DNA of 64,000 nucleotides from an uncultured Planctomycetaceae bacterium (GCA_963813715.1 CAWFAK010000016.1:460069-524068), one strand, 5' to 3'; shown: positions 40,531 to 43,787, counted from the first letter of the stretch. Program-made: numbers and translations. Notes: generated from the sequence alone by a model not told the origin.

Positions 40531-40613
40531 CAACGCCCGGGACGGGACACGTTGTTTCACCGAGAAAACGCCGAAGAAATTGGCCCTCACCCCGACCCTT
40601 GTATGTTGAAAAA

Positions 40614-40835
40614 AGATCAATCTGCGCATTTGATGGTGACAGCTGTGGGAAGGCTTGCGAAGCGTAGCGAAGCAAGGTTTCCCACAGCGGCCGGCGGTAG
40701 ATCGTCCGCCCTCAGGTCCAAGAAGACCGTGGGAGAGCTGGATCGCCGCCGGTCTCATGAGATCAGCCCGAACAGCCGTCAGAGCCGTCGTGGCGCCAGT
40801 CGCCGCTCGAGCTCGCATTCGCAAGGACGGGACAT
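40614..40835 (+). ncRNA. predicted bridge RNA of IS110 copy 1 (ends approximate)
   Basis: 5' hairpin 40642-40688; target loop with GTCCGCCCT (40704-12) and TGGGAGAG (40730-37); donor loop with ACAGCCG (40772-78) and GCAAG (40821-25). Confidence 0.8.
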
Positions 40836-40839
40836 CGTC

Positions 40840-41792
40840 ATGGACGTCGCCTTCAAATCCTTCGTCGGTATCGACATCGCCAAACGGACCCTCGACGTGC
40901 ACGTGCTGCCTGAGCGAACGTCGCTCAAGCCGCCAAACGATTCCAAGGGCCGCCAGCAACTCCGAGAGAAGCTTCCTCCTCCCGGAGAGTGTTTGATCGT
41001 CGTGGAAGCGACCGGCGGTTACGAGCGGGCCCTCGTCGCCGAACTGATCGACGCGGGCCATCAGGTTGCGGTCGTCAATCCGCGGCAAGCCCGGGACTTC
41101 GCCAAAGCCTGTGGAATCCTCGCCAAGACCGATCGGATCGACGCGGCCGTGCTGGCACGCTTCGGGCAGGCCGTCGTGCCGCGGACCCAGACCAAAATCC
41201 CGGAAAAACAGCTCGAACTGCAAGACCTCGTCGTCCGCCGCCGGCAGCTCGTCGAGCTGCGAACCGCCGAAATGAACCGCAAAGAAAACGTCGCCAGCAA
41301 GTTTGTTAAAAAGAGCCTTCAGGAGAGCGTCGACGCGCTCACCAAGCAGATCCGACGCTTCGAGAAGCGAATCGCCGCGCTGGTCCAATCGGACGACGAG
41401 TGGAAACAGAAGGCCGAGATTGTTCAAAGCGCGCCGGGGATTGGACCGGGCACGAGTGCAACCCTGATCGCCGAGGTCCCCGAGTTGGGGAAGCTGAGTC
41501 GACGAAAAATCTCCGCACTGGTCGGCCTGGCCCCCTTCAATCGCGATAGCGGCGAGTTCCGAGGACGCCGCGCGATCCGCGGCGGCCGAAGTTCGGTGCC
41601 TGTAGCCTGTACATGGCGACGCTCAGCGCACGACGCTCCAACCCAGTCATCAGAGCCTTCTCGGATCGCTTGAAAGCCCTCGGCAAAAAACCCAAGGTCA
41701 TCATCACCGCCTGCATGCGCAAGCTGCTGGTGATCCTCAACACGATGGTCAAAAACAACACGCACTGGAACCCTGCAATCTCAACCACTTAA
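40840..41792 (+). CDS. IS110 DEDD recombinase/transposase, frameshift near 41598
   Basis: GIDIAK, VVEATG, KTDRIDA (DEDD); PGIG; RDSG (catalytic Ser); ACMRKLL. Confidence 0.95.
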
Positions 41793-41816
41793 CTCTTGAA
41801 AAGAAACACAGCCGCT

Positions 41817-42493
41817 CTCCCATCCGCCGAAGCGGACGGGAGAGGGGGAAAGATTGGAGGTAGATTGGGGTTTCGGGTCCCCGGGCCTGCGCTGCGCTCC
41901 GACCCAGCTGCAGCTGTCGCGCTCCGTTGGGGCTGGAGTAGAGCGGGACGGGACACGAACGCATTGGGACTCCGGAATGGCCGCGGCGCGCGAGTGCCAC
42001 CCGAGCCGACTGGTCAAGAATTGTCTGGTGGGGATCTTGCTCCCGCCGGGACGCAAAAGGATCCCCGGCGGTGATGGGGATCCTTTTTCACTAAGCGGAG
42101 AAAAGATCCCCGGCAGCCGACGCCGAGCCGATTGCGGACAGTCCAAGTCCGGTCCGGACACTTTTCGAGCGGGACCCGCGGGACGGGACACGTTGTTTCA
42201 CCGAGAAAAGCCCGGAGAAAGTGGCCGTCACCCATCCGAGGCGGACGGGCGAGGGCGAAAAGTGGGACGGGACTCGAACGGTAACGGGTCTCGTTTCGTA
42301 GGGTGTCGACAAGGCCGCCTTGCGGCCGCAGGCACACCATTTCTTCCCGGCCGCTCTAGAGAAGGAGTCCACTGGGGATGGTGGGCCGGTGCCCCGCCTG
42401 GCGGGACTGGTCCCACCCCAGGGATTGGGACCGGTGGGACGGGACTCGTTGTTTCACCGAGAAATGCCCGAAGAAATCGACCCTCACCCCGAC
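41817..42493. repeat. REP-rich spacer between the IS copies, with further copies of the target repeat unit
   Basis: GGGACGGGAC(A/T)CGTTGTTTCACCGAGAAA near 42180 and 42436 (also near 40539); GTAGGGTG..CACACC REP-like element at 42298-42338 with a partner at about 42379-42419. Confidence 0.7.
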
Positions 42494-42509
42494 CTTGTAT
42501 GTTGAAAAA

Positions 42510-42731
42510 AGATCAATCTGCGCATTTGATGGTGACAGCTGTGGGAAGGCTTGCGAAGCGTAGCGAAGCAAGGTTTCCCACAGCGGCCGGCGGTAGATCG
42601 TCCGCCCTCAGGTCCAAGAAGACCGTGGGAGAGCTGGATCGCCGCCGGTCTCATGAGATCAGCCCGAACAGCCGTCAGAGCCGTCGGGGCGCCAGTCGCC
42701 GCTCGAGCTCGCATTCGCAAGGACGGGACAT
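42510..42731 (+). ncRNA. predicted bridge RNA of IS110 copy 2 (ends approximate)
   Basis: Matches copy 1 except GTCGTGGC to GTCGGGGC inside the donor-loop inner stem region. Confidence 0.8.
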
Positions 42732-42735
42732 CGTC

Positions 42736-43688
42736 ATGGACGTCGCCTTCAAATCCTTCGTCGGTATCGACATCGCCAAACGGACCCTCGACGTGCACGT
42801 GCTGCCTGAGCGAACGTCGCTCAAGCCGCCAAACGATTCCAAGGGCCGAGGGCAACTCCGAGAGAAGCTTCCTCCTCCCGGAGAGTGTTTGATCGTCGTG
42901 GAAGCGACCGGCGGTTACGAGCGGGCCCTCGTCGCCGAACTGATCGACGCGGGCCATCAGGTTGCGGTCGTCAACCCCCGACAAGTCCGCGACTTCGCCA
43001 AAGCCTGCGGAATCCTCGCCAAGACCGATCGGATCGACGCGGCCGTGCTGGCACGCTTCGGGCAGGCCGTCGTGCCGCGGACCCAGACCAAAATCCCGGA
43101 AAAACAGCTCGAACTGCAAGACCTCGTCGTCCGCCGCCGGCAGCTCGTCGAGCTGCGAACCGCCGAAATGAACCGCAAAGAAAACGTCGCCAGCAAGTTT
43201 GTTAAAAAGAGCCTTCAGGAGAGCGTCGACGCGCTCACCAAGCAGAATCCGACGCTTCGAGAAGCGAATCGCCGCGCTGGTCCAATCGGACGACGAGTGG
43301 AAACAGAAGGCCGAGATTGTTCAAAGCGCCGGGGATTGGACCGGGCACGAGTGCAACCCTGATCGCCGAGGTCCCCGAGTTGGGGAAGCTGAGTCGACGA
43401 AAAATCTCCGCACTGGTCGGCCTGGCCCCCTTCAATCGCGATAGCGGCGAGTTCCGAGGACGCCGCGCGATCCGCGGCGGCCGAAGTTCGGTGCGCTGTA
43501 GCCTGTACATGGCGACGCTCAGCGCACGACGCTCCAACCCAGTCATCAGAGCCTTCTCGGATCGCTTGAAAGCCCTCGGCAAAAAACCCAAGGTCATCAT
43601 CACCGCCTGCATGCGCAAGCTGCTGGTGATCCTCAACACGATGGTCAAAAACAACACGCACTGGAACCCTGCAATCTCAACCACTTAA
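42736..43688 (+). CDS. IS110 DEDD recombinase/transposase, frameshifts near 43245 and 43328
   Basis: Same motifs as copy 1; C-terminus in ORF 43317..43688. Confidence 0.95.
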
Positions 43689-43787
43689 CTCTTGAAAAGA
43701 AACACAGCCGCTCTCCCATCCGAAGCGGACGGGCGAGGGAGAAAGACTGGACGGGACGCGATCGACCCGGTAAGCGATCAGCGGCGC

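Follow-up and report, generated by a model that had tools for sequence, protein, structure and literature searches.

Conserved in-frame openness of the guide-RNA region in an IS110 bridge-recombination element and its mostly planctomycete relatives

The 64,000-nucleotide (nt) stretch of DNA analysed here (the window; GCA_963813715.1, CAWFAK010000016.1:460069-524068), from an uncultured Planctomycetaceae bacterium, holds two copies of a 1.22-kb insertion sequence (IS) of the IS110 family (40598-41816 and 42494-43712, the second 98.9% identical to the first), each with a left end that carries a bridge RNA ahead of a recombinase gene. We consider it likely that this is an IS621-like bridge-recombination element whose left end has been kept translatable in a mostly planctomycete clade. 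By analogy, bridge recombination as in IS621 is close to certain; translation across the bridge RNA, judged from the sequences compared, is quite likely, and the same DNA probably serves as guide and as message in this lineage. The element's sequence anatomy, the covariation of its guides, its site preference and the conservation of its open frame are directly observed. Positions are those of the whole window, the features of the element listed below lie on its + strand, and L and G labels denote the related loci and genomes with which it was compared.

In copy 1 a 79-codon open frame (40603-40839) starts at an ATG at 40603, has a second in-frame ATG at 40633, and crosses the bridge RNA in register with the recombinase gene. 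A first interpretation of this DNA (the sequence-only reading) had described a non-coding left end of about 240 nt; the length was right (40598-40839, 242 nt with the core), but the open frame across it had been missed. Encoding of the bridge RNA in a non-coding end is a descriptive rather than a mechanistic trait, and its absence here marks a variant. The left end is free of stops in the recombinase frame in 30 of 40 elements, as against two and five for the other frames. Counted from the ATG at left-end position 6, a codon that belongs to both the donor and the -10 box, the frame stays open as far as the first catalytic strand for 31 of the 34 in-group elements and for none of eight out-group elements. 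The in-group was first drawn at 47% identity, with L063 left out; in a quick tree, which does not include rows with broken genes such as L115 and L152, one clade (Shimodaira–Hasegawa-like approximate likelihood ratio test 92) unites 40 open and two closed rows, and two open and 28 closed rows fall outside it.

The left ends share a mean identity of 64%, and 11 of their 14 non-zero length classes (32 of the 34 in-group elements aligned) are multiples of three; the expected open fraction is 0.40 under column resampling and 0.10 under base shuffling. All 13 representatives below 70% identity are open, and all ten of their non-zero length differences are multiples of three. The opposite strand is open in 10, 12 and 3 of 32 elements in its three frames, far below the 31 of the sense frame. 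Leader codons 2-10 are likewise stop-free in 27 of 27 collinear elements (stops occur in 19 and 15 of them in the other frames), and in six of the 27 the interval from the expected junction start site to the hairpin is devoid of standard start codons, an indication that translation would begin at codon 1. In other multi-copy genomes all checked copies are open: 3/3 in G110, 3/3 in G166, five of the ten in G998, and L007, L008, L010 and L011. In the complete genome G101, whose 11 copies are its only PF01548 matches, ATC replaces the internal ATG in 11/11 copies and no ATG, GTG or TTG follows the RNA.

The left end (40598-40839) folds better than 200 of 200 shuffled sequences (z -4.1) into the layout of a bridge RNA, numbered here by analogy to the parts of the IS621 descriptions available to us (PMC11208160; PMC11208158): a 5' stem-loop, two internal-loop stem-loops, a conserved flipped A and a linker G. 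The 5' stem-loop, correctly predicted by the sequence-only reading, lies at 40642-40688, carries compensatory changes in genome copies 7 and 8 and is deleted in some relatives (L051, L152). The target-binding loop (40690-40753) comprises an outer stem, a left guide region (40705-40714), an inner hairpin (40715-40728), the right guide (40731-40737) and a handshake (40738-40739), and the donor-binding loop (40767-40831) comprises the left donor guide (40772-40778), an inner hairpin, a right donor guide in two parts (40817-40818 and 40821-40825) and a handshake (40826-40827). In an alignment of 37 RNAs pairing is kept at 97.7% over the 26 stem pairs, with double changes at 13 of them, a result reached by none of 500 shuffles and set against 28-41% for slid controls. 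The nine Rfam matches were weak (E up to 5) and did not approach a gathering score. The proposed IS621-type architecture is supported, and every named motif is in place.

The guides were compared with insertion sites in a set of 181 loci, minus 11 duplicates from the element's own genome and plus its nine own copies; parsing succeeded for 102 of these and yielded 91 distinct sites and 53 guide pairs. The right target guide agrees with target positions 10-14 at 4.41 of 5 positions over 25 distinct guides (permutations 1.76 +/- 0.24; 0 of 10,000 as high), so the guide tracks its sites as had been anticipated. The complementarity between TGGGAGAG (40730-40737) and CTCTCCCA (41815-41822) is present as first described, and per-position agreement is 0.80-0.96 at positions 10-14. 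At position 15 it falls to 0.19, so that the first T of the supposed 8-nt guide is a variable linker after the conserved CC-G and the right guide is 7 nt long; long right guides have already been described in the passages of earlier work available. The left guide is less exact. GTCCGCCCT (40704-40712) matches the left flank of copy 1 with the five identities, two wobbles and two mismatches originally counted. Over 34 guides covariation peaks (z 8.2) with the base that follows AGATCG as the first position, a base that itself matches in 0.12 of cases, and offsets of -1 and +1 also score z about 4. For the element itself, mean identities of nine over 13 sites are 4.6, 4.7 and 6.2 at offsets -1, 0 and +1, the last being the register of the sequence-only reading and the best fit. 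The left guide is weak and probably slipped, and may pair in more than one register.

On the donor side, ACAGCCG occurs as proposed both in the loop (40772-40778) and at the right end (41808-41814), in support of the donor ACAGCCG-CT-TGTAT. The left donor guide equals the left donor in 61 of 61 cases, a figure that is partly circular as the donor was located by best match, and it follows the donor variants ACAGTTG and ACAGTCG. The right donor guide had been read as a contiguous GCAAG; that motif is at 40821-40825, within a guide that is discontiguous (AT..GCAAG), as in IS621, and the handshake positions had been missed. In G101 this guide tracks CT-CGTAT. The target-loop handshake pairs with donor position 7 in 42 of 42 cases, with one double change, and the donor-loop handshake with target position 7 in 22 of 30. 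In two related loci, L050 and L173, the left core reads CG or CC rather than CT and equals left-guide positions 8-9, two cases only; L238, near L050, has a CT left core. The distant IS110 elements L209, L210 and L244 (40-42% identity; three and eight copies in G983 and G890) have the common left donor guide, a different right donor-guide region and closed left ends. Elements with the same donor and different target guides also live together, L152 with L007-L011-type elements in G125 and L169 with L177 in G755, so they might mobilise one another or supply recombinase in trans.

All copies sit at a CT within the hairpin repeat CCCTCTCCC, which resembles a repetitive extragenic palindromic (REP) sequence. 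CT-CTCCC directly follows the element in 9/9 copies, the left half of the hairpin repeat precedes 8/9, and the ninth lies in the repeat's other arm; removal of the element rebuilds the repeat with a single CT at 9/9 sites, as expected of scarless, site-specific insertion. For copy 1 the left half of the repeat is at 40584-40597 (left target 40591-40597), and the core CT, the right target CTCCC and the remaining hairpin are at 41815-41848; for copy 2 the right target and hairpin are at 43713-43740. The genome holds 33 free copies of the repeat, of a shorter and a longer type. An empty-site joint (40597-41815) with one CT is present in contigs of sequencing runs X1 and X7, for which other copies of the repeat are a possible source. 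Another repeat motif, made up of GGGACGGGAC and then a conserved 20-mer, stands 5' of most target hairpins and forms composite clusters with them (in the window at 40540-40580, 42181-42280 and 42437-42493); the repeat unit at 42171-42280 lacks the core and is unoccupied. Five relatives, L049 (88% identical), L021, L053, L175 and L014, carry the right guide GGGTGAG and sit in the repeat at its first rather than its second CT, a natural retargeting by one base.

The hairpin of the repeat DNA could itself be a second target determinant that offsets the poor left guide, a proposal compatible with a translated left end. The complementary arm is present at 8/9 own sites and at 21 of 23 distinct right flanks of close relatives, 602 of 726 free CT-CTCCC sites have a core not preceded by CC, a kind of site at which no insertion is seen, and a hairpin gate has been described for ISPpu10 in the part of the source available (10.64898/2026.03.19.712850). 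The arm is, however, also present at 77 of 107 free sites that match the guides equally well (Fisher p 0.44), which leaves an independent role of DNA structure unsupported; sequence matching alone can account for the pattern, and the hairpin lies right of the core here and left of it in ISPpu10. We consider such a role unlikely.

Joining of the ends would create a promoter, as in IS621. The right donor TGTAT (40600-40604) overlaps a -10 box, TATGTT (40602-40607), and the right end (41793-41814) carries a -35 box, TTGAAA (41796-41801), beside the left donor. In reconstructed junctions TATGTT is kept in 29 of 37 and a TTGA-type -35 box at 17 nt in 33 of 37. No sigma-70 promoter was found inside the linear element. 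The circle junction was absent from viral contigs, and in the genome it had no exact match and three one-mismatch matches (eight for the control); nor was it seen in the contigs of four runs, which drop rare forms and so have no bearing on its absence. Contigs of six RNA runs cover this DNA, though contigs do not reveal RNA ends or strand and carry no weight here for expression. A separate promoter-like pattern at 40606-40635 (left-end positions 9-38), in which 21-27 of 27 elements keep a TTG at 9-11 and a T...AT at 32-37, would place a start at the 5' hairpin; the A of the sigma-70 -10 box is absent from it. A single continuous frame round the circle was considered and rejected: the six closest elements have circles whose length is divisible by three, a property that is not conserved beyond them.

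These observations fit the following scheme, in which RNA expression, the circle and the recombination chemistry are modelled on IS621. The circular form would join ACAGCCG-CT-TGTAT and thereby create the promoter; the left-end RNA would bind the DEDD/Ser recombinase, with one loop pairing with the donor and the other with CT-CTCCC in the repeat, the latter mainly through the perfect 7-nt right guide with help from the weak left guide. Ribosomes would initiate on the -10-box ATG, or on the second ATG in elements that have one, and cross the bridge RNA to give a recombinase with an extension of about 79 residues that is predicted to be disordered (AlphaFold, predicted local distance difference test below 50 for residues 1-81, then a confident core). 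Because the expected junction start site lies downstream of the first ATG, codon 1 would be found only on read-through transcripts, which would be those available to an integrated copy that must excise; excision of IS621 needs read-through transcription according to the passages available of PMC13626964. In the simplest model integrated copies would give a long recombinase and circles a shorter one. We advance the full proposal tentatively, as slightly less apt to hold than to fail: that in this clade the guide RNA is coding sequence, that integrated copies translate their excision enzyme from host read-through via the donor/-10 ATG, that the circle switches to the junction promoter and the shorter product, that retargeting is limited to stop-free, in-frame changes, and that the long form is all that at least one lineage (G101) has to rely on.

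Several observations weigh against translation across the left end. The tree was built quickly, the in-group was initially delimited by identity, and the probabilities above are overstated because the elements are related. Within the sample L115, L152 and L169 are out of frame, and the left end carries a 1-nt insertion in two of the nine own copies, whose genes are broken as well. A held-out pattern search of 401 and 398 genomes gave 57 loci, of which 19 were new (eight chance matches, three fragments, three distant and five in-group elements). The three distant elements (40-42%) are closed, as expected; the in-group ones are mixed, three of the five being in frame from codon 1, with L207 stop-free in the frame of the gene and its codon 1 one base off, and L242 closed. 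The extension peptide shows no selection, its ratio of non-synonymous to synonymous polymorphism (0.84) being like that of the other frames. In an integrated copy no clear ribosome-binding site stands before the first ATG, and clade members do not bury the internal start more deeply than other elements do (0.42 unpaired against 0.46). Nor is G101 proof, since ATC can initiate translation, if rarely.

The left end might be translated for the sake of ribosome traffic rather than of the longer protein, the ribosomes either shielding read-through transcripts from early termination or decay, or melting the donor-loop stem and so opening the internal start. Selection that acts on openness and not on sequence would be in keeping with this, as would the predicted disorder of the extension, the location of the internal ribosome-binding motif in the donor-loop stem and the example of ISPpu9, where, in the passages available of PMC8450116, a structured 5' leader limits translation and antisense RNA relieves it. 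Traffic alone would not need the register with the recombinase that 31 of 34 elements keep, and G101 has no standard internal start to open; we judge this account improbable. More improbable still is that the element is an ordinary IS621-like one whose open frame is a by-product, never usefully translated, of shared ancestry and of an RNA that is structured, conserved and rich in guanine and cytosine (GC): the lack of peptide-level selection, the existence of intact genes behind a broken left-end frame (L169, L242 and, in part, L207), the 0.40 chance of openness from conserved columns and the internal ATG kept behind a ribosome-binding-like motif in every in-group element except those of G101 speak for it, and against it stand the average of 2.2-3.3 stops that this RNA has in its other frames, length changes by multiples of three (among them a mutually cancelling -1/+1 pair in L109) for which RNA structure gives no reason, an open frame in L112 at 43% GC and the closed frames of out-group bridge RNAs with similar loops.

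The recombinase is of the expected kind. Its intact form matches Pfam DEDD_Tnp_IS110 (PF01548) and Transposase_20 (PF02371) above their cut-offs, NCBIfam NF033542 (IS110 RNA-guided transposase) at 229.9 bits against a cut-off of 140, and the IS621 and ISCro4 chains (8wt6_A and 9t56_A) at E 3e-42; D12, E56, D98, D101 and S237 align with IS621, and the DEDD, Ser and wedge residues are kept. Named Planctomycetaceae metagenome-assembled genomes carry recombinases 91-95% identical to it, in agreement with the suggested planctomycete host. A phylum-wide protein search of 400 genomes at E 1e-90, with five candidates scored per genome, found nothing new, and plasmid searches gave only relatives below 50% identity over the full length. 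The loci L193 and L195-L201 belong to a second, unrelated IS110-family element with eight PF01548 matches in the same genome.

The genome has nine full copies at 94-100% identity. The element has a left end of 242 nt and a right end of 22 nt, with CT at both ends in all nine copies. The ends share no inverted repeat of at least 25 nt, in keeping with the lack of terminal inverted repeats in the IS110 group; assignment to the IS1111 group, with a downstream seekRNA and sub-terminal inverted repeats, was rejected, the right end being only 22 nt long and the guides lying upstream of the gene. The 317-aa gene is intact in three of the nine copies and frameshifted in six, including both in the window. 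Copy 1, from core CT to core CT, is one base short compared with intact copies, and its gene (40840-41792 from the internal ATG) has the frameshift at 41599/41600; copy 2 (upstream ATG 42499, internal ATG 42736, stop 43686-43688) has one of +1 near 43246 and another of -2 near 43326. These breaks may be long-read errors, since the base missing from copy 1 is present in contigs of runs X1 and X16 and two neighbouring enzyme genes are also split over two frames each, a NAD-dependent sugar epimerase/dehydratase (35993-36942) and a fumarylacetoacetate-hydrolase-family gene (46867-47737), which suggests assembly indel errors. Elements occur as tandem pairs twice, in the window (contig C16 of this genome, G000) and at C5:1206700-1209469, with spacings of 677 and 330 nt; as ends are shared, such pairs could act as composite units. 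Upstream in the window lie a gene for a 462-aa, secreted-looking protein rich in Cys, Pro and Ala with tandem repeats (38392-39780) and, 3' of it, a strong terminator (39861-39894) that would limit read-through into copy 1.

As a further bridge recombinase the element adds little, because its class, target repeat and donor are already in published data: it is a member of the IS110 bridge family with a known target and donor, and what is new is a guide-RNA region kept as in-frame coding sequence across a clade. If this is true, a programmable guide RNA doubles as a message and the state of the element would decide whether a long or a short recombinase is made, which bears on how an integrated IS110 element without its promoter obtains its excision enzyme. 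It would also mean that start sites of IS110 recombinases may be mis-set in orthologue screens for tools; 54 of 72 screened orthologues were without signal in the passages available of one such screen (10.1101/2025.05.14.653916). The clade further offers a natural panel of at least 20 right guides on one common donor, including the single-base change that shifts insertion to another CT.

In relation to known systems, and contrary to the sequence-only reading, the natural specificity is not new: the same repeat with the same CT cut is among the targets in supplementary file 5 of Durrant 2024 (PMC11208160). A string search of file 4 found the same donor junction in at least four places and the same right-guide context in at least 23, and no match to the exact left-guide string in its searchable part. 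IS110 orthologues in Supplementary Data 1 and 2 of that study also have left guides ending CCCTC-A before the hairpin, and the passages of its text available contain no frame analysis. The element may moreover be among the 72 orthologues of 10.1101/2025.05.14.653916, which lie outside this comparison. Full-text searches found no paper on a translated IS110 left end, most subscription papers being outside their reach, and term searches found none in the available parts of PMC11208160, 10.1101/2025.05.14.653916, PMC8450116, PMC11187229 and 10.64898/2026.09.15.751765.

As far as the accessible portions of the reports go, the element resembles IS621 (Durrant 2024; Hiraizumi 2024, PMC11208158) and ISCro4/IS622 in its DEDD + Ser recombinase, and IS621 in its predicted left-end RNA with a 5' hairpin and two internal loops, CT core, REP targets, handshake bases, a right donor guide that is discontiguous and includes a G-T pair, and a putative junction promoter. 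It differs from IS621 in its 7-nt natural right target guide (4 nt in IS621), in a target-loop left strand that is one base shorter, with a first base that is not guide and a weak or slipped left guide, in its left end of 242 nt, and in the fusion of the left-end frame to the recombinase, which is unreported for IS621 in the passages searched, the left end of IS621 itself lying outside the comparison. Two preprints, in the parts available, report copy-out rather than cut-out excision. From what the available passages say, ISPpu10 and ISPpu9 of Pseudomonas putida are likewise REP-targeting IS110 elements, with no translated leader reported for either; ISPpu10 shares the tolerant left guide and strict right guide and differs in having its stem-loop left of the core, and ISPpu9 shares a structured leader and differs in its use of an antisense RNA. 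The nearest parallel for a guide RNA and a protein message that share sequence on one transcript is the right-end element RNA (reRNA) of TnpB, as described in the accessible part of 10.64898/2026.09.09.750255: the reRNA overlaps the 3' end of the nuclease gene, whereas here the whole bispecific guide lies in what would be an upstream, in-frame extension of the recombinase.

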